Below, piece by piece: positions 507 through 60,800 of a DNA stretch of 64,000 nt; position 1 is the stretch's first letter, and every line of letters begins with the position of its first letter. Below the pieces are notes generated by a model. It searched no databases and had not been told where the DNA came from. It worked only from the letters and a program-made list of their open reading frames with translations. Origin of the DNA: a bacterium (GTDB lineage Bacteria; SZUA-182; DTGQ01); the NCBI GenBank assembly GCA_023512255.1, contig JAILZY010000003.1, positions 29,400 through 93,399 of the forward strand, read 5' to 3'. The translations under genes were made by a program, and so were the position numbers.

Positions 507-810
507 GGCTATATTATAAGCATACACTCTTATAATCTATGATTATAAGAGTTCTATCTTATAATATTTCTATCTTATATAGCTTATATAGCCTGACGAT
601 GGTAAGGGAATAGAAAGCTGGGAATTCTATGCAGTTATAGCGGGTGATGCGGCTCTATTATAAGTATACACTCTTATAATCTATGATTATAAGAGTTCTA
701 TCTTATAATCATAGATTACTTATATAATCATAGATTATCTATAATCATAGCTTATATAGCCCGGCGATAGAGGGGAATGGAAAGCCGGAAACTGTATGCA
801 GTTATAACAG
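507..810 (+). repeat. Tandem direct duplication (~145-160 bp units, 507-650 and 651-810) of the satD promoter/5' region, each carrying the perfect palindrome ctcttataatc-tat-gattataagag
   Basis: The two units are near-identical. Each has 11-bp inverted-repeat arms, at 526-550 and 671-695. Copy 2 runs into the satD start codon. Copy 1 ends in a decayed N-terminus ...YAVIAGDAALL*. Confidence 0.8.
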
Positions 811-1454
811 GTGATATAGTAAGATCGACCAGGTTTACACCGGATCAGCGGGATGGGGTGTTGTCAACCTTAAAGGCCGCTTTTGAGACTGTGAAAGATA
901 CCCTATCCGGTGCTCTGTGTACGCCCTTCTCGATTTATCGGGGAGATAGCTTTCAGGGAGTATTGGATAGACCAGAGCTTGCCCTGCGGGCAGTGCTCAT
1001 CATTCGGGCAAGTCTTGGATGCGGTTTTCTGGCTGCGCATCGCCGGCTGAGGCTCGATGCCCGGATGGCAGTAGGCATTGGAGAAGTTGATTTTCTTCCC
1101 AAGGGTTCAAGCTCCGAAGGGGACGGGGAGGCTTTTCGGCTCTCAGGGCCTGCCCTTGATAATATGGATAGGATGAGAGGGGGGCAGCGGCTGGCGATTC
1201 GAACACGGTGGCCGGAGGTTAATGCCGAATTTGATGCCGAGTGTGCCTTGCTGGATGCTCTGATCAGCAAATGGTCTGTGGGGCAGGCGCAGGTCATTAT
1301 GGCCCAGGTCAGGAATCTGACTCAAGGTGCGGCTGCCCGCGAGCTTGGTATTTCTCAGCCCGCGGTCCAACAGCGTCTGAAGCATGCTGGCGGTTGGGCA
1401 GTGGCTGAGTTCTGTCGTCGCTATGAGGAGGTTATCAGCCGACTTAAGGGGTAA
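777..1454 (+). CDS. satD: SatD-family protein: N-terminal class-III nucleotidyl-cyclase-like domain fused to a C-terminal sigma-70 region-4-type HTH
   Basis: The N-terminus YAVITGDIVRSTRF resembles the cyclase motif (a)LFaDIVGFT, and RGDSFQ resembles the second metal-Asp motif IGDAYM. The C-terminus VRNLTQGAAARELGISQPAVQQRLKHA is an ECF-sigma-like HTH. The satD/satE gene pair is known from the Streptococcus sat (ffh) locus. Confidence 0.6.
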   Translation: MESRKLYAVITGDIVRSTRFTPDQRDGVLSTLKAAFETVKDTLSGALCTPFSIYRGDSFQGVLDRPELALRAVLIIRASLGCGFLAAHRRLRLDARMAVGIGEVDFLPKGSSSEGDGEAFRLSGPALDNMDRMRGGQRLAIRTRWPEVNAEFDAECALLDALISKWSVGQAQVIMAQVRNLTQGAAARELGISQPAVQQRLKHAGGWAVAEFCRRYEEVISRLKG

Positions 1455-1456
1455 GG

Positions 1457-1535
1457 TTATTAAAAGTTTTAGGAAAGGGGTTTTAAGGGGAAAACCCTTA
1501 CTCGATAAGGGTTTTCTCCCTCGACTTGATTATGA
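1457..1535 (+). repeat. Family-3 repeat element copy A (ttaaaagttttaggaaagggg...aaggggaaaaccctta...taagggttttctccc), hairpin-forming
   Basis: About 75 % identical to 23808-23890. It contains the imperfect hairpin gggaaaaccctta/taagggttttctccc. It may also act as a weak terminator after satD. Confidence 0.6.
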
Positions 1536-1556
1536 AGGAATGGGGAAGTTTTTATT

Positions 1557-2315
1557 ATGCTGCCACAAGGTAGTGAGGTAGTATTTTTTCGCCTTATCAT
1601 GGCCCATCTTGTGGCTGACTTTCTCCTCCAGAGGGAGTGCTGGGTACGTCAGCGGTTTCAAAAAAAATGGGCTTCCCCCTGGCTTTATGCCCACGGGGCT
1701 ACAGCGTCTGCCTTAGCCTATCTTTTAGCAGGATACTGGAGGGTCTTCTGGCTGCCGATAGGCATCTTCGTCTCTCACGTTCTGCTGGATGGTTTAAAAG
1801 CCCAGCAAGAGGGAGGAGATAACAACTGTCGGGCTTTCCTCCTTGATCAGACGGGGCATCTTCTAACTATCTTAATCTTTTGGATGCTGTTGACAAAAGT
1901 CCACCTGGCTCATCTTTGGGCCATTATTTTCTCTCTATGCTCTAGCAGGACATTTTGGATTTTGGCCCTGTGCTACTTTTTGGCCCTTTGGCCAGCGGGG
2001 TTTTGGATCGGGAAAATTACCCATCCTTGGCGAAAGCAGATCGAGGAGTCAGCCTCACAGGGGCTGGCCAAGGCAGGGCTTTGGATCGGCTGTCTGGAGA
2101 GGGTATTGATACTGACCTTTGTACTTTTGAACCAATTTGGGGCTATAGGGTTTCTGATTGCCGCCAAGTCTATCTTTCGTTTCAATGAAATCAGCCTCCC
2201 TGAGCGGAGGAAGGAGGCAGAGTATATCCTGATTGGAACCATGATCAGCTTTGCTATTGCCATTGGGCTGGGGATCCTGGCCCGCTTGAGCTTGCATTAT
2301 CCTCTCCTACAGTAG
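1557..2315 (+). CDS. satE: Polytopic membrane protein, SatE/DUF3307-like, partner of SatD
   Basis: Multiple hydrophobic helices sit immediately downstream of satD. An alternative start is MAHLVADFLLQ at 1599. Confidence 0.5.
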   Translation: MLPQGSEVVFFRLIMAHLVADFLLQRECWVRQRFQKKWASPWLYAHGATASALAYLLAGYWRVFWLPIGIFVSHVLLDGLKAQQEGGDNNCRAFLLDQTGHLLTILIFWMLLTKVHLAHLWAIIFSLCSSRTFWILALCYFLALWPAGFWIGKITHPWRKQIEESASQGLAKAGLWIGCLERVLILTFVLLNQFGAIGFLIAAKSIFRFNEISLPERRKEAEYILIGTMISFAIAIGLGILARLSLHYPLLQ

Positions 2316-5598: not shown

Positions 5599-5760
5599 GT
5601 GGTCATCTCCTTATGCTGAAAGCTCAAAACGATGGAGTTAAATAAAAAGGCCGCTTGTGGTGAGAAAGTATAGCAATAGAGATGCCACTGGGGAGAGCAA
5701 AAAGAGGATCACACTCTCATGATCCACGAAAAGTGGATGAAAAACAAATAATTATCAGCC

Positions 5761-5787
5761 AAAAAAGAAAGCCACAGCTGGCTTTCT
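5761..5787 (-). terminator. Rho-independent terminator (minus strand): stem agaaagcca/tggctttct followed by a T-run
   Basis: Perfect 9-bp stem with a 4-nt loop, followed on the minus strand by TTTCTTTTTT. Confidence 0.55.
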
Positions 5788-6263
5788 CATCTTCAGAATA
5801 ATTTCATTTTTGTCAACCCTGATTTCATTTTTGACCTCCAGCCAGAAAATGAATTACCATTCTGTAACCACTTCAAAACCTCCCCGCTAAACCCCTGAAA
5901 AAATTTATCAGGCCTTTTATTCTCTCCATCGAATAGCCAGCAGAAGACGACACCCCCGTGTAATTGCAAAAGCAATGCCACCTTGGATGCCTTCCATCCC
6001 CTTACTGGCCACTGCATTGAAAAATAAAGCCTTTAAACCAGAAGCTAAGCTTGCGGCCAACCAACCCTATCCTCTGAGCTTAGATTACAACTCTGTAATC
6101 AGATGACAGAAACGGCTTACGGTTTTGTTAGCCAAGCAAGCCGCTAGAGCCCGCTTGGTATCAAAATAGAGGGACTCACCAGAGAGGATTAGCCCACCAT
6201 CAAAAAAAGGGAGAGCGGGGATGAAGTTTAGTGGCTTCTCTTCTAGTAGTGGGTTTCTCTATA

Positions 6264-23751: not shown

Positions 23752-23880
23752 TGGTTGGAAGGAACCCTTTTGAAAAAGGGTTCCTTCCAAACCATCCTCC
23801 TAAAACTTTAATAGCTAGGCTATTAAAGTTTTAGGAAAAGGGTGATAAGGGGAAAACCCTTTTTCAAAAGGGTTTTCCCC
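23752..23880. promoter_or_regulatory. Three consecutive perfect palindromes (17-bp stems) in the divergent intergenic region
   Basis: P1 23752-23788 is ttggaaggaaccctttt-tg-aaaagggttccttccaa. P2 23797-23833 is cctaaaactttaatagc-tag-gctattaaagttttagg. P3 23845-23880 is aaggggaaaaccctttt-tc-aaaagggttttcccctt. Confidence 0.7.
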
Positions 23881-30228: not shown

Positions 30229-30269
30229 ATTATCATCAGGATCATCACTCCTGGCTACGACGCCGTCAA

Positions 30270-30495
30270 AAGCTCAACCCCTCTGCTCGCTCGCGCGGGG
30301 GCTTTTTATCTCTCGACCCATTCAACCCCTCCCTGAACGCCCTCTGCTCGCTCGCGCGGGGGCTTTTTACGAACCACGAATGAACACTAATTCACACAAG
30401 CTCAACCCCCTGCTCGCCCGCTGCGCGGGGCGTAGGTTTTAGCAGGTCAAGCTGGCATATGGCGCTCAACCCCTCTGCTCGCTCGCGCGGGGCTT
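30270..30495 (+). repeat. CRISPR-like mini-array: 4 degenerate direct repeats (~29-30 bp, consensus gctcaacccctctgctcgctcgcgcgggg) at a 60-68 bp period, no cas genes
   Basis: Repeat cores are at 30279-30308 and 30339-30368 (identical 30-mers), 30399-30430 (variant) and 30464-30492. The spacers are unique and 22-38 bp long. Confidence 0.45.
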
Positions 30496-30523
30496 GTGGT
30501 AATGCACACCCCAAAGTGGCCAG

Positions 30524-40074: not shown

Positions 40075-40195
40075 TTTCGCTCTTATTTATTGGCTACCAT
40101 TGAAATACATAACCCTAATAAGAGCTAAGCCCCTTCGAGGGTTTATGGTTGTTCTGATATAGGGTTTATGGTGTCTGATATATAAGAGCGATTCA
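40075..40195 (+). repeat. Family-2 MITE-like repeat copy 2
   Basis: Near-identical to 2327-2448. Confidence 0.75.
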
Positions 40196-55060: not shown

Positions 55061-55771
55061 TCAGACAATGATCGGGACGGGATTGGCCAGTGATAAGCCA
55101 ACGGTACCGGTGTCGACTCTCAGATACAGAGGATCATGAATGGTATAGGTTCCGGTAATAAAGCTTGGAGAGGTGAGGGTACAGCTATAATCCACGGTAT
55201 AGGTAACCAGTTTAGCCAGGTCAAAATACGTGCCGGTCAGGGTGAATCCGGTAGCGCTGTTTAGGCCGGAGACACTGATCGGGACTGGAACAAGCTTGTT
55301 TAGGAGAAGCCCAGCGGTTCCAGATATGGTTAGCGTGCCTGGAGTATAGAGGAGCTGAAAATCAGCCGTCCCGCTGTTTAGGGTAACATAGCTTACCCAG
55401 GTACCGCTCCAGCTTCCAGTGGGGTTTGGCAAAGGAGGAATTATAGTTGTGGTTGTTAGCGGTGCCTGAGCCTGGCGGATCATCTGTCCTGAATCTATGC
55501 CTGGGGCAAGTCCATACAAGCCAGCCAGGCCGTATAAGCCCCCTAGGCCGTATAAGCCGGCCAGACCGCCGTAGAGGCCATATGGACTGAATGCACCACC
55601 ATATAAACCATAGCCTACTACCCCATATCCGTAATATGGGCTTGCTAAGCCAAATCCGCTAATACCTGCAAGCCCCCCACCGTAATACGCCGGGGCATTT
55701 TGGCTAATAGCCATAGACACTGCTAAAAGGAGAAAAAACATAAAAATTACTTTTGCTCTCACGAACCTCAT
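55061..55771 (-). CDS. Secreted Gly/Tyr-rich protein, paralog 1 (GLYG repeats + conserved ~115-aa C-terminal domain)
   Basis: Signal peptide, then a (G)GLYG/YGL low-complexity region, then LPNPTGSWSGTWVSY...SGTAGLLLNKLVPVPISVSGLN. It is homologous to the next gene. The start is at MRFVRAKV, after a gggagg RBS. Confidence 0.65.
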   Translation of the reverse strand: MRFVRAKVIFMFFLLLAVSMAISQNAPAYYGGGLAGISGFGLASPYYGYGVVGYGLYGGAFSPYGLYGGLAGLYGLGGLYGLAGLYGLAPGIDSGQMIRQAQAPLTTTTIIPPLPNPTGSWSGTWVSYVTLNSGTADFQLLYTPGTLTISGTAGLLLNKLVPVPISVSGLNSATGFTLTGTYFDLAKLVTYTVDYSCTLTSPSFITGTYTIHDPLYLRVDTGTVGLSLANPVPIIV

Positions 55772-55939
55772 AGTACATACCTCCCTTTTCCAAAACATCC
55801 CACAAACTAGAAGGAGGAGCAGGGAGCGAGGTTTATCACATCGCTTAAAGCCCCCAACCTTCGCCAAGAAAACAGCAGCTTAGGGTGAATTTATCTTCAC
55901 CTTACCCTTGTTTTAAAAGGGTAGCTTCTGGCCTTAGTC

Positions 55940-56872
55940 TCAGATGACCAGGCTTAAATTAAACTCACCCGCATCACTCTTGAGATATAGGGCATCATGG
56001 ATTAAATACGTTCCGGCGAGAAAAGATGGAGAAACCAAAGTGCAGGCATACTCAGCGTAGTAAGTTACCAGGCTAGTGGGGTCAAGATAGCTGCCGCTTA
56101 GAGTGAAGCCAGTCGCCGTGTTCAATCCAGAGACCGTAATGGGTAACGGTATCAGCTTGTTCAGCAAAAGCCCTGCGGTTCCAGAAACAGTTAGAGTCAA
56201 GGGGTTATAGGTAAGATTGAAATTGGCAATACCCCCTTTTAGGGTAATGTAGCTCAGCCAGGTGCCGCTCCAGGTACCGGTGGGATTTGGCAATGCCGGG
56301 ACAGCGGACACAGAGCTGGTAGAAGTCGAGGTTGTAGGCAGGGTCAGCCCCGAGCTGAGAAGTACTTGGGCTTCTCTGGACAGCGGATTAATACCTTCAC
56401 CTAAACCATATCTACCCAGCAGGCCGCCGTAGAGGCCGCCGTATAGACCACCGTAGAGACCATACAGGCTGCTCCCATAAAGACCATACAACCCGCCATA
56501 TAAGCTACTACCATAGAGGCCGCCATATAAACCATACAATCCGCCATATAGGCCGAGACTGCCGCCATATAGACCTAGCCCACCATACCCACCATACAGG
56601 CCACCGTACCCGCCATACAGGCCACCATACCCGCCATACAGGCCACCATATAGACCGCCGTATAGACCACCATAGAGACCGTACAACCCACCGTACAGCC
56701 CACTGCTGTAGTATACAGTTCCCAGGCTGGATCCGCTGCCTGTGATGCTACCGATGCCATAACCATATAGGCCGCCGCCATAGTAGCCTTGCGCACCTGT
56801 ACCATATAAAGCTAATGATATAACTAATGCCAGAAATACTGCCCAACGTGCTTTCTCTCTCAAAAGCCTCAT
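55940..56872 (-). CDS. Secreted Gly/Tyr-rich protein, paralog 2
   Basis: Long GGLYGGLYGGYGGLYG repeats. The C-terminal domain, LPNPTGTWSGTWLSY...SGTAGLLLNKLIPLPITVSGLN, is about 60 % identical to paralog 1. Confidence 0.65.
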   Translation of the reverse strand: MRLLREKARWAVFLALVISLALYGTGAQGYYGGGLYGYGIGSITGSGSSLGTVYYSSGLYGGLYGLYGGLYGGLYGGLYGGYGGLYGGYGGLYGGYGGLGLYGGSLGLYGGLYGLYGGLYGSSLYGGLYGLYGSSLYGLYGGLYGGLYGGLLGRYGLGEGINPLSREAQVLLSSGLTLPTTSTSTSSVSAVPALPNPTGTWSGTWLSYITLKGGIANFNLTYNPLTLTVSGTAGLLLNKLIPLPITVSGLNTATGFTLSGSYLDPTSLVTYYAEYACTLVSPSFLAGTYLIHDALYLKSDAGEFNLSLVI

Positions 56873-57804
56873 GCCCAAATTACTCCCTTCATTTTTGAAT
56901 ACGAAAAATACGCTCATACTTCAAGTTTCACTTTGAATCTCACAATTTCTCACCGTAATCTTCTCTACAATACGATTTCGCTCTCACCTCCTTCAGGTTT
57001 TTTCAAATGGGGTAATATTGGCCTTGAGCAGATCGCGGATCATAGATTGGTTTTATGGTCAATATACCCACTTCTAGCGGTCATATCCCATTAACCTGAA
57101 AATGATCAAGATGGGGAAACCAGAGGTCAACTAGGTCGAAGAATCAACTAGGTCAAACAAGAATGCAACCCGCGACGATCGGAAGGATTAACCGCAATTT
57201 CATAAATATCATACATTCATACATAATAAGCACATTCATACATAATAAGCAATTCATAAGCAATCACCACCACCAGGGGAAGTAACCAGTAAGTGCCCGA
57301 CCATCAAGGTTTATAACTTGACATAATGACGTAGCCCTGGACAAGTGAAATAATTATCCTGGCCAGGATGTTATAACCATTGATGTTATAACCAGTAATG
57401 GTTGGTCGCTTATGTGGTGTAAAACTTAATAAAAAAATTAAAGACTACGGTTTACCTCTCCCTGCTGATTGATTAAGAGTTTAGCGTTTATCTAAAAAAA
57501 CGACGCTGCAAGGTTAAAAAACCTTACGCTCTCTGTTTGTACTTTTTAGAGAAGGGATGATACAATTATTTAATGTCAGGAGATGATAGTAGGGTGTCAG
57601 GATATGATGATATTATTATATCCTGACATTATGATATAATATTTATTAATATTATAATTATAATATATTGATGTAATAATATCGCTAAATGGTTGATATG
57701 TTCAGAGTAATGTTGTCAACCTGATACCATTAAACTTCGCGGGGGCTGATCGGATGATCCCCAATCAAGCCCCCACTGAAACCCTAAGCTTAAACCCTAA
57801 ACGC

Positions 57805-60800
57805 CTACTTTACGGTTGACTGCTTAACCGATTGCATCGCCGGCTGCACAGTCTGCTGAGCTGGCTGCTGCTGGGCTAGCTGGGCTGGCTGAGCTGGAAC
57901 GGTGCTTGTCTGCTGGGTTGATTGGGCCACTGGCTGTTGCACGGGCTGCTGGGCCGGCTGTTCTAGCTGCTGCTGTCCAGGCTGCTGGATCGCCGGCTGC
58001 ACGGTTTGTTGAGCTGGCTGGGCTGGCTGAGCTGGCTGCTGCGCTTGCTGAGCTGGCTGCTGCGCTGGCTGGGCTGACTGCTGGGTTGATTGCTTTATCG
58101 GAGGATTAATCGGCGACTGCCCTGGCGGCGGAACAGGAGTGCGGGGTGGGGGAAGTACCCGATAGATGTAGTCAGCGCCAAAGAATTTGCAACTTATCCC
58201 CCGGTACTTGAATAAGCCATTCACTTCAAAATAGTCATCAATAGGAACCTCAGTAACCTTAGACCGGTTGAATCTGCAGATAGAGGTGTGCTCTACCCAA
58301 TCGTGGTTAATCTGATCTGCCACCGCTCCATCGGCAACTGCCTCATATATAGTTAGAGCATCATAAGGAGAGGGAAAGTGGATAAAAGCGACAAAAGTAG
58401 TTGCCCCTATTTTTTGAATCTCATCCTTGATCACTAGTTGATCTCCAGTCAGTCTAAGAACTACCTCAAACTGCACCGAGGCTGACCCCACATTGCCGCA
58501 CTCATCCGTGGCAACTACCGTGATTGTATTTTGTCCGACTAGCTCAGCCATATTGAGTGAAATTGGAGGGTGGGGACTAAGATAAATCGGTGCAGCCCCA
58601 TTATTGGAAAGCTTGACCACAACTTCTGGATCGGGGTCACAGTTATCAATCACAGTGTAATCGAGAGCGACTATGTCAGTGGTGAAATATTTCACTGCTA
58701 ACGGCTTGATAGTGACAGATGGACTTTCCTCATCAAGGACAGTTACCTTGAAGCTGCAAGTGGCTGTATTTCCATAACTATCCGTAGCTGTATAGGTTAC
58801 CAGGGTTCCTTGAGCACTGTCTTTGCATTCTGCAGGGAAGAAATCACCAGGCTTATGGGTGCTTTCTACGGTTACCGGACCACAATTGTCGCTAAAGACC
58901 GGTGGGGTCCAGGAAACCTTTGCACCGCATACCCCAGGCTCATTTCTGACGGTTATGTCAGTCGGACACCCGTTGATAATCATAGGCCCTATGGTATCCG
59001 AAACCGTTACTGTGAAACTACACTCTTGCTTATTCCCACAGTCATCTGTAGCTGTGTAGATAACTTTCGTCGTGCCGATGGGGAAAAAATCACCCGGCTC
59101 ATGGTTACTGGTTACGGTTACCGAGCCGCAATTGTCCCTAAAGGTTTGGGGAATCCAGAAAACTTTTGCCCCGCAGGCTTCAGGATCAGCACTTACAGTT
59201 ATATCATCCGGACAGCCGCTGACCATAGGCGCTTCCTTATCGAGCACTATAACTCTGAAGCTACAGCTTGCTTCATTCCCATACTCATCTCTGGCCGTGT
59301 AGGTAACTATGGTTCCTTTGGCCTCACTTTCGCATTCTGCGGGGAAGAAATCACCAGGATTATGGGTGCTGGTTACGGTTACCGGACCGCAATCGCCAAC
59401 AAAGGTTGGTGGGATCCAAAATACCTTTGCCCCGCACTCTCCAGCCTGGTTATTTACCGTGATGTCAGGCGGACAGGGTTCGATCGGCGTAATTAGACCA
59501 ATTCCTCCCCCTTCAACCGTTATATTAAATTCGCAAGGGGCGGCCTCATTGCCAGAGCTATCCTTGGCTGTGTAGATAACTTTAGTTGTTCCAACTGGAA
59601 AGGAGTCCCCAGGGACTACATTCTCCCGCTTTGTGCCGTCAGGATATATAGCAATGCTTGTTACGATTACCTGACAATTGTCCTTAAAGACAGGCGGAGT
59701 CCAGCTTACTGGAGACTCTTTTCCGCATATGCCACTTACATTGATATTACCTGGACAGTCGCTGATAAGTATAGGAGCAATTTTGTCCACCACCGTTACT
59801 GTAGCTGTGCAGGTGCTCTGATTGCCGCTGGTGTCAATGACGGTCAGGGTAACCAGATTGGGGCCAATATTGTCGCAGGTGAAGGTATCTGGGAAGACCT
59901 CCATTTTGGCAATGCCGCAATTGTCGGCTGAGCCATTATCTACATCCTGGGGGTTGATAGAGACCTGGCCGCTGGCATCAAGCTGCACGGTGATGTTCTT
60001 ACACCTGGCCTCAGGGGGAATGGGATCCACTACCGTTACTGTAGCTGTGCAGGTGCTCTGATTGCCGCTGGTATCAGTTACGGTCAGGATAACCAGATTG
60101 GGGCCAATATTGTCGCAGGTGAAGGTATCAGGGAAGACCTCCATTTTGGCAATACCGCAATTATCAGATGAGCCATTATCTACATCCTGGGGGTTGATTA
60201 TAGCCTTGCCGCTGGCATCAAGCTGCACGGTGATATCCTTGGCTATGCACAGGGATAGTTCGCTGTCTTTGACTGTAACAGTAAAGGTACAGCTTATCGG
60301 AATTCCGCAATTATCCACCGCTTCATAGGTAACTTCCGTTGTCCCAACCTCAAAGAAACTGCCAGGGTTATGGGTGCTAGTTACCTTCAGGCTGCAATCA
60401 TCGACAAATTTTGGTGGAGTCCAATCAACCCGCGCTCCACACTTTCCTGGTTCATTATCTTGGGGTGGGATGTTGGTCGGGCAATATTCAATGGATGGGC
60501 CATCGTTTACGATCGGTAGGGTAAAGGTGCACTCGGCGACGATTCCATCTACATCCTGAGCCGTGTAAGTAACTATAGGCCCTGTAGCACCACATTCTAT
60601 GGGAAATAGATCACCAGGCTTATGATTACTAATTACCGTCACCGGACCGCAGACACCAAAGTCTGGCTCAGGCCAGAATACTTGTGCCTTGCACTCTTCA
60701 GTAATCTTATTGATGGTGATATCAGATGGAGTTGGACAGTAGGGCAGGCAGCAGATGCGCCGCTCATCAGCTACGGTCGTGGGCGGAGTCTGATCAGAAG

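Follow-up and report, generated by a model that had tools for sequence, protein, structure and literature searches.

The 64-kb window analysed here (64,000 nt of contig JAILZY010000003.1) carries near its left end the gene pair satD-satE, named after the sat operon of Streptococcus mutans, and our subject is the control of this pair by the region in front of it. On the plus strand, satD (777..1454) encodes a protein of 225 aa in which a palm domain is joined to a C-terminal helix-turn-helix (HTH), and satE (1557..2315), directly after it on the same strand, encodes an all-helical polytopic membrane protein of 252 aa; the spacer between them (1455..1556) measures about 103 bp. Both products exceed the Pfam gathering thresholds of their families: SatD matches PF16264 with E 6.7e-10 and scores 39.4 bits where 29 is required (residues 7-205 on profile positions 1-196 of 211), and SatE matches DUF3307 with E 2.3e-21. 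An earlier note on this DNA, made from the letters alone, had named these two families among those to be checked and had described the second product as a polytopic membrane protein, both rightly; its remark that satD and satE are functionally uncharacterised also holds, as no described mechanism was found for the family. Within the catalogued but uncharacterised satD-satE family, where satE comes after satD in 77 of the 78 loci with enough downstream sequence, this locus is an ordinary case.

The SatD and SatE proteins

The palm domain of SatD (777-1205, residues 1 to ~143) belongs to the cyclase superfamily. A profile of 52 homologues found its best PDB matches among class III cyclases (3mr7, E 6.2e-5; Ma1120, ~1e-3), in agreement with what the earlier note had read from the N-terminus, and the domain has the beta-alpha-beta-beta-alpha-beta palm fold of the superfamily formed by the class III cyclase homology domain (CHD), GGDEF and Cas10. 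The AlphaFold2 (AF2) model of SatD is confident (predicted local distance difference test, pLDDT, 92.9; predicted template modelling score, pTM, 0.91). The two Asp residues in GDIV (D13) and RGDSF (D57), already singled out as presumptive metal ligands, align on the two metal Asp residues of the cyclases, in beta1 and the beta2-beta3 hairpin, in the profile search and with hhalign, and are invariant in the family. Across 54 members sharing 25-45% identity, Q60, G117, S123 and G124 are likewise invariant, while T11, G12, G56, D94, R96, G102, A119 and L127 are conserved in at least 90%. An exhaustive phmmer search with residues 1-145 matched 1350 cluster representatives (50% identity) from many bacterial phyla and from methanogens and anaerobic methanotrophic (ANME) archaea, nearly all of them 215-240 aa long, which indicates a uniform architecture. 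No SatD-SatE fusion was found among the long homologues, which carry tetratricopeptide repeats (TPR) instead: three SatD-family proteins (P0259, P0299 and P0372) have a C-terminal TPR extension of 200-350 residues, suggesting an extra protein-interaction input in those lineages.

Beyond the metal ligands, 26 relatives of PDB 3mr7 were aligned profile to profile (hhalign) with the SatD family (E 5.7e-4; probability 29.5%). R96 comes to lie on the Arg of YRIGI, the phosphate-binding Arg in beta4, and AFRLSG on AARLEG, so that R121 falls on the transition-state Arg of helix 4. The transition-state Asn (VN.A.R motif), in contrast, is aligned with the invariant G117; opposite the base-specifying Lys of VKTTGD there is a 2-residue gap, and opposite the specificity Asp a variable loop. 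By these equivalences SatD retains the part of the site that handles metal and triphosphate but not the part for ribose and base. On this showing the palm domain is likely to bind a complex of nucleoside triphosphate (NTP) and metal, and canonical cyclase chemistry by SatD is doubtful. Of the cyclase-like placement of Asp, Asn and Arg that was to be checked, the Asp part was borne out, the Asn part was not, and the two Arg residues are aligned at the probability just given. Similarly, the idea of cyclic-nucleotide signalling keeps the superfamily and the metal Asp residues on its side, but with the Asn and base residues lacking, the production of a cyclic nucleoside monophosphate (cNMP) is speculative.

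The HTH (1212-1451, residues ~146-225) contains the recognition helix ISQPAVQQRLK (1350-1382, residues 192-202). It had been called similar to extracytoplasmic function (ECF) sigma factors, and the C-terminus does resemble sigma-70 region 4; however, every match is below threshold (Sigma70_r4_2, 17.8 bits versus 25.7; TIGR02937, 17 versus 42.9), and sigma region 2 is absent from SatD, which therefore does not qualify as an ECF sigma factor. Some SatD relatives have precomputed Sigma70_r4 matches. SatE is modelled as all-helical with a pLDDT of 91.6. Its N-terminal DUF3307 helices carry conserved H17, D21, H46, D78, D97, Q98 and H101, a set of His and Asp residues that suggests an intramembrane metal site, and its C-terminal half is the best conserved part of the protein (E181, R182, K204, S205, R208 and E222).

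Palindromic sites in front of satD and satE

Four copies of a 22-bp palindrome, TTATAAG-N8-CTTATAA, lie upstream of the window's satD: O1 (514..535, spacer CATACACT), a perfect match to the family motif; O2 (543..564, spacer AGTTCTAT), 29 bp after O1; O1' (658..679, spacer TATACACT); and O2' (687..708, again with AGTTCTAT). These are the only perfect sites in the window, which holds five matches with up to two mismatches where 0.33 would be expected. Among the relatives, we compared 82 satD loci, including L081 (ENA) and L082 (JGI), two strains assembled independently whose SatD is 97% identical to that of the window, and it was in the upstream regions of the more distant relatives that a recurring TATAAG...CTTATA first became apparent. 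With at most one mismatch, TATAAG-N8-CTTATA is found at 91 places within 250 bp upstream of satD (4.6/kb) versus 62 in the remaining 466 kb (0.13/kb), a 34-fold enrichment. Of the 91 upstream sites, 88 have a spacer of exactly 8 nt, and many of the matches beyond the 250 bp fall in the satD-satE interval. In a motif-free scan for AT-rich 7-N8-7 palindromes, 73 of the 82 loci had a site in their regulatory zones, and 65 pairs spaced by 28/29 bp turned up in 25.7 kb of such zones versus 7 in the other 460 kb. Between successive sites, a distance of exactly 29 bp clearly predominates (55 cases). Motif, 8-nt spacer and 29-bp period are kept from Planctomycetota to archaea, whereas the flanking sequence is not. 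The 22-bp palindrome at its 29-bp period is almost certainly the conserved operator through which SatD would control itself and SatE, in support of the earlier description of the region as an autoregulated operator array.

The palindrome on which that description had centred is a different one. Its 11-bp arms, CTCTTATAATC-TAT-GATTATAAGAG, are indeed perfect at 527-551 and 671-695, with no further copy in 64 kb and none expected by chance, but it is a junction rather than an operator: it begins with the right arm of one 22-bp site, runs through the 7-nt linker TCTATGA and ends with the left arm of the following site, and since any two neighbouring sites necessarily create an inverted repeat between them, its presence follows from the array. 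The extension to 11 bp is not kept even in L081. TAATC-N3-GATTA was accordingly rejected as a conserved operator, as it occurs among the 82 loci only in the two 97%-identical strains. A dispersed mobile repeat was considered for the palindrome too and dismissed, since no other copy exists in the 64 kb; nearby repeats resembling miniature inverted-repeat transposable elements (MITEs; the 2325-2440 and 1463-1514 families) are unrelated to it in sequence.

Half-site variants follow changes in the recognition helix of SatD. The helix ISQPAVxQRLK goes with TTATAAG in Planctomycetota, Methanoperedens/ANME and Cytophagales; ISQPA(V/I)xKR(L/I) goes with TTATAAC or TTATAGC in Bacteroidales, Lentimicrobiaceae, an Ignavibacteriaceae metagenome-assembled genome (MAG) and others; and ISQAAVHYRVKG (AAVHYRVKG) goes with TTTTAAG in Balneolaceae. 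Methanogenium proteins have a very different helix together with different repeats. This covariation points to SatD itself as the protein that binds the predicted operator. A distant satD on the Vibrio lentus plasmid p1 (28% identity; L084, 2386-2460) is preceded by three copies of TTAGCC-N6-GGCTAA at a 28-bp period; that array ends ~30 nt before the start codon and shares the design of the window array with an entirely different half-site.

The sites were also located relative to start codons. In Bacteroidales and Lentimicrobiaceae, satD directly follows another gene and has no site before it, and up to six sites at the 29-bp period stand in front of satE instead. In Brocadia, Omnitrophus, Methanoperedens and ANME-2, the site nearest to satE holds the Shine-Dalgarno (SD) sequence GGAG in its 8-nt spacer, and its right arm runs into the start codon (CTTATA|ATG); the satE ATG adjoins the right arm in this way, with the SD in the spacer, in both bacteria and archaea (L013, L018, L020, L026, L036, L042, L046, L006 and L012). 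Repression is favoured by such sites lying over SD and start codon and by arms that resemble -10 or TATA boxes. In the window, the geometry seen in relatives would make TATAAT at 560-565 (the right arm of O2 plus a T) and at 704-709 candidate -10 boxes.

Duplication and turnover of the control region

The intergenic region 376-776 is AT-rich, with 34% GC versus 48% for the whole window. The tandem duplication of control region and first codons reported in the earlier note is confirmed. The unit of 144 bp (507-650) comprises the operators, a promoter-like region and the first 13 codons; in a global alignment of 507-650 with 651-816, 127 of 142 positions are identical (89%) and copy 2 has a net insertion of 24 nt, the identity reaching 97% over 59 nt (507-565 versus 651-709) and 84% over 43 nt (606-648 versus 773-815). 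Each unit holds two operator sites, TATAAT, GAGGGG resembling a ribosome-binding site (RBS), and the first 13 codons up to GGTGAT. On the plus strand, U2 (651..776) is the active satD control region and U1 (507..650) the older, decaying copy, with O1, O2, the -10-like TATAAT and a 5' stub of the gene. The stub (610..663; ATA GAA AGC TGG ... GGT GAT GCG GCT CTA TTA TAA) has ATA at 610-612 where satD has ATG (777-779), and its frame ends at a TAA (661-663) that falls within O1'; with start codon lost and frame closed, copy 1 is a dead 5' stub.

Copy 2 has in addition undergone a micro-expansion at 704..758 (plus strand), where three copies of TATAATCATAGATTA in units of 17-19 nt derive from the operator right arm and linker; Tandem Repeats Finder (TRF) reports a 17-nt unit in 3.1 copies over the same interval. 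The direct repeats TAATCATAGATTA that had been ascribed to both copies are present in copy 2 only (706-718, 725-737 and, with one mismatch, 742-754), and copy 1 holds this motif solely as the reverse-complement core of the palindrome. Among the 82 loci, TAATCATAGATTA/TATAATCATAGATTA occurs only in L081 and L082 and is thus specific to the species-level lineage of the window.

The same two strains have at least three units where the window has two, and they mix an 'a-type' stub, equal to the real 5' end, with the 'b-type' stub of U1 that they share with the window. Within their third unit, between the operators and the satD start, a MITE-like insertion of ~107 bp is found, and their satD-satE spacer contains two small mobile repeats. 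An assembly artefact was rejected for the duplication, since its copies differ from each other and the independent ENA and JGI assemblies show the array again. As unit counts, stub composition and insertions in L081 and L082 show, the array is real, recent and variable in copy number. The duplication is therefore not a conserved design feature but a copy-number-variable, decaying repeat, and as a local, strain-variable event it is of limited general interest.

Several further repeats surround the pair. A perfect 18-bp tandem duplication (GAACCCCAAAGCTTGATT twice, 356-393) covers the final codons and stop of the K+ channel gene upstream of satD (3' end at 70-375); it is missing from the 97%-related L081, leaves the protein unaffected, and is a further sign of slippage there. 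The satD-satE spacer is occupied by a dispersed 52-nt repeat (1463-1514, 83% identical to 23825-23876) with a 14-bp hairpin, GGGGAAAACCCTTA..TAAGGGTTTTCTCC. A MITE-like repeat of ~116 bp with terminal inverted repeats (TIRs) TCGCTCTTAT...ATAAGAGCGA, present at 2325-2440 and 40077-40191 (93-97% identical copies), lies downstream of satE in the window and between satD and satE in L081 and L082; the L081 copy (5680-5812 and 5919-5930) is split by another element. The ~107-bp element CTATACTTTTGCAC...CTGCAAAAGTGTAGA occurs in L081 (4843-4950 and 5813-5918) and also in L082, inserted in the TAATCATAGATTA repeats upstream of satD and in the satD-satE spacer, and has no copy in the whole window.

On the 3' side of satE follow a PF04199 'putative cyclase', a gene of the inositol-phosphatase family and a nitroreductase. 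The closest named relatives are Brocadiales planctomycetes, and the window SatE is 100% identical to an NCBI protein from a MAG labelled 'bacterium'. Farther away, at 30268-30500, three to four copies of a terminator-like element made of a GC-rich hairpin and T-run (CCCTCTGCTCGCTCGCGCGGGGGCTTTTTA) lie within 230 bp. Dense internal coding repeats fill 55500-60700, with short repeats of Gly/Tyr-rich type at 55.5-56.7 kb and 57.8-58.1 kb and domain-length repeats of 240-260 bp at 58.7-60.7 kb; minus-strand genes for large, repetitive surface proteins are their probable source.

A possible autorepressor and the systems it resembles

We hold it somewhat probable, from the sequence comparisons above, that SatD is a nucleotide-responsive autorepressor of satDE. 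The comparisons themselves show the folds of the domains, the conserved residues, the motif with its period and its placement at start codons, the linkage of the genes and the variation in copy number; the promoter positions, the nucleotide ligand, repression and binding as a dimer are inferred from them. The operon would then be under the control of its own first gene product, a SatD dimer sitting through its C-terminal HTH on head-to-tail 22-bp palindromes at the 29-bp period. The operators would lie across the core promoter, with CTTATAAT, the right arm of the site before, doubling as the -10 box, and SatD would repress satD and/or satE, whose RBS and start are covered by sites in many relatives. 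As a divergent member of the nucleotide-cyclase/GGDEF/Cas10 group, the palm domain may bind Mg-NTP or slowly turn it over, and if the Mg-NTP state set dimer geometry and DNA affinity, SatD would operate as a one-component nucleotide-responsive switch. The expression of SatE appears to need tight control. In the window, the operator pair and probably the promoter would each be present twice through the duplication, with the upstream copy a decaying relic: U1 may serve as a second repressible promoter whose transcript passes the U2 operators and a possible 12-bp hairpin, and satE probably relies on the satD promoter(s), since its spacer is without a site.

Several observations weigh against this model. 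The covariation of helix and half-site is partly confounded with phylogeny, and at an hhalign probability of 29.5% the residue equivalences beyond the two Asp residues are tentative. The period of 29 bp corresponds to a non-integral number of helical turns, and at the operators no canonical -35/-10 pair came out of a promoter scan. The window lineage has no operator in front of satE, where the spacer (1455..1556) holds the hairpin repeat, and the operator-promoter geometry is not strictly maintained in this lineage, given the ~107-bp MITE-like element between operators and satD start in the 97%-identical strains. Finally, no SatE relative with a solved structure or known function was detectable.

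Other explanations fit parts of the same evidence. SatD could be an active nucleotidyl cyclase or nucleotidyltransferase whose messenger acts on SatE, as in Pycsar or CBASS, with DNA binding a secondary matter. In favour of this, neither of the metal Asp residues varies, two Arg residues tentatively equivalent to those of cyclases are retained, and the strict pairing with a membrane protein resembles cyclase-effector operons. We nevertheless consider it unlikely: the transition-state Asn is aligned with the invariant Gly117 and the base-specifying Lys and Asp have no counterpart, while the operator evidence gives the HTH a specific, conserved DNA target. The setting speaks against a cyclase-effector system as well, since neither SatD nor SatE matched any PADLOC defence model, Pycsar and CBASS included, at E up to 1, and satD stands in Bacteroidales in conserved synteny behind a housekeeping-looking gene. 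Moreover, satD was found in 5 of 72,556 plasmid records and in none of 50,697 phage records. On these grounds a defence system was rejected, and so was a phage or plasmid origin. A little less probable still, by analogy with ECF sigma/anti-sigma operons, SatD might be an activator held inactive by the membrane protein SatE. Gene order and autoregulation would be alike, and the sub-threshold sigma-70 region 4/ECF matches, together with the precomputed Sigma70_r4 hits in some relatives, lean the same way; yet SatD lacks sigma region 2, the half-sites are themselves -10/TATA-like, and the operators reach, and in satE cover, SD and start codon, a position typical of repression.

The essentiality of satD in Streptococcus pyogenes also bears on this choice. 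One study (PMC11323703) reports it as the only 'essential accessory' gene, required in every transposon sequencing (Tn-seq) data set of this species, which fits the loss of a repressor better than that of an activator of a non-essential gene; it is what would be expected of the repressor of a harmful neighbour, although the paper did not test it as such. The supplements of that study do not mention the satD/satE genes. It was the only functional note on the family that we found, literature searches for SatD, SatE and DUF3307 returning mostly satellite-DNA noise and no account of an operator or autorepressor. Very improbable, in our view, is a reading in which the palindromes and duplications at 507-776 have no function and reflect a genome rich in MITEs and prone to repeats, or in which they act as RNA hairpins or terminators and not as protein-binding sites. 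The region is certainly plastic, with two versus at least three units, the MITE-like insertions in L081 and L082 and the unrelated 18-bp duplication at 356-393, and the junction palindrome folds into a 12-bp RNA hairpin (-15.4 kcal/mol, z -4.3 to -6.3) that, with the U-rich tail behind it, is flagged as terminator-like. Against this, motif, 8-nt spacer and 29-bp period outlast their surroundings from Planctomycetota to archaea, the motif covaries with the SatD recognition helix and has no other copies in the 64-kb window, and 11-bp arms that are not kept even in L081 mark the long hairpin as lineage-specific. Neutral copy-number variation may hold for the duplication, not for the operators.

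The autorepressor model can be carried further, though here we regard the extension as improbable. satDE would be a self-contained module that moved between bacteria and archaea, in which SatD, a minimal palm-domain enzyme or sensor with an HTH attached, reads or makes a nucleotide signal and in response releases the repression of a harmful, intramembrane, metal-dependent SatE, amounting to a nucleotide-gated addiction module or a stress or abortive module of a kind not recognised before. If true, such a module would account for satD being essential solely in those streptococcal strains where it is present. New at the level of the family are the operator with its regular period, the way in which half-sites change along with the recognition helix, and the incomplete active site. 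With these, a widespread uncharacterised family gains a DNA target, a predicted regulatory logic and candidate residues for mutation (D13, D57, R96 and R121 of the palm domain; in the recognition helix, the position preceding its conserved Arg), which opens the way to simple experiments.

To date, the nearest known counterparts are the Pfam families themselves, SatD (PF16264) and DUF3307 (PF11750), whose order and adjacency the window pair shares, its SatD, from an uncultured bacterium, being a distant member at 39 bits. The S. mutans sat-type pair lies in an ffh operon, whereas the window pair stands alone behind K+ channel genes. Compared with class III cyclases (PDB 3mr7; Ma1120, 4wp8; bPAC, 5mbg), the SatD domain is ~30 residues shorter and fused to an HTH, with Gly in place of the catalytic Asn, the substrate Lys in a gap and the specificity Asp in a variable loop. 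From GGDEF diguanylate cyclases it differs in having YRGDSFQ where these have GG(D/E)EF, in lacking an I-site and in matching no GGDEF profile. A system for comparison is the class III cyclase-like ATP-binding domain of a Pseudomonas aeruginosa transcriptional regulator (PDB 6yii), and SatD, if the model is true, would be a compact example of a cyclase-homology domain serving as the sensor of a one-component regulator. The proposed logic is also reminiscent of type II toxin-antitoxin-like modules, in which the regulator gene likewise comes first, palindromic operators overlap the promoter, and the regulator is essential, as in one species here, only where the module is present. In contrast to these modules, satDE is rare on plasmids and absent from the phages searched, SatD brings a putative sensor of its own in the palm domain, and the second gene encodes a large polytopic membrane protein.

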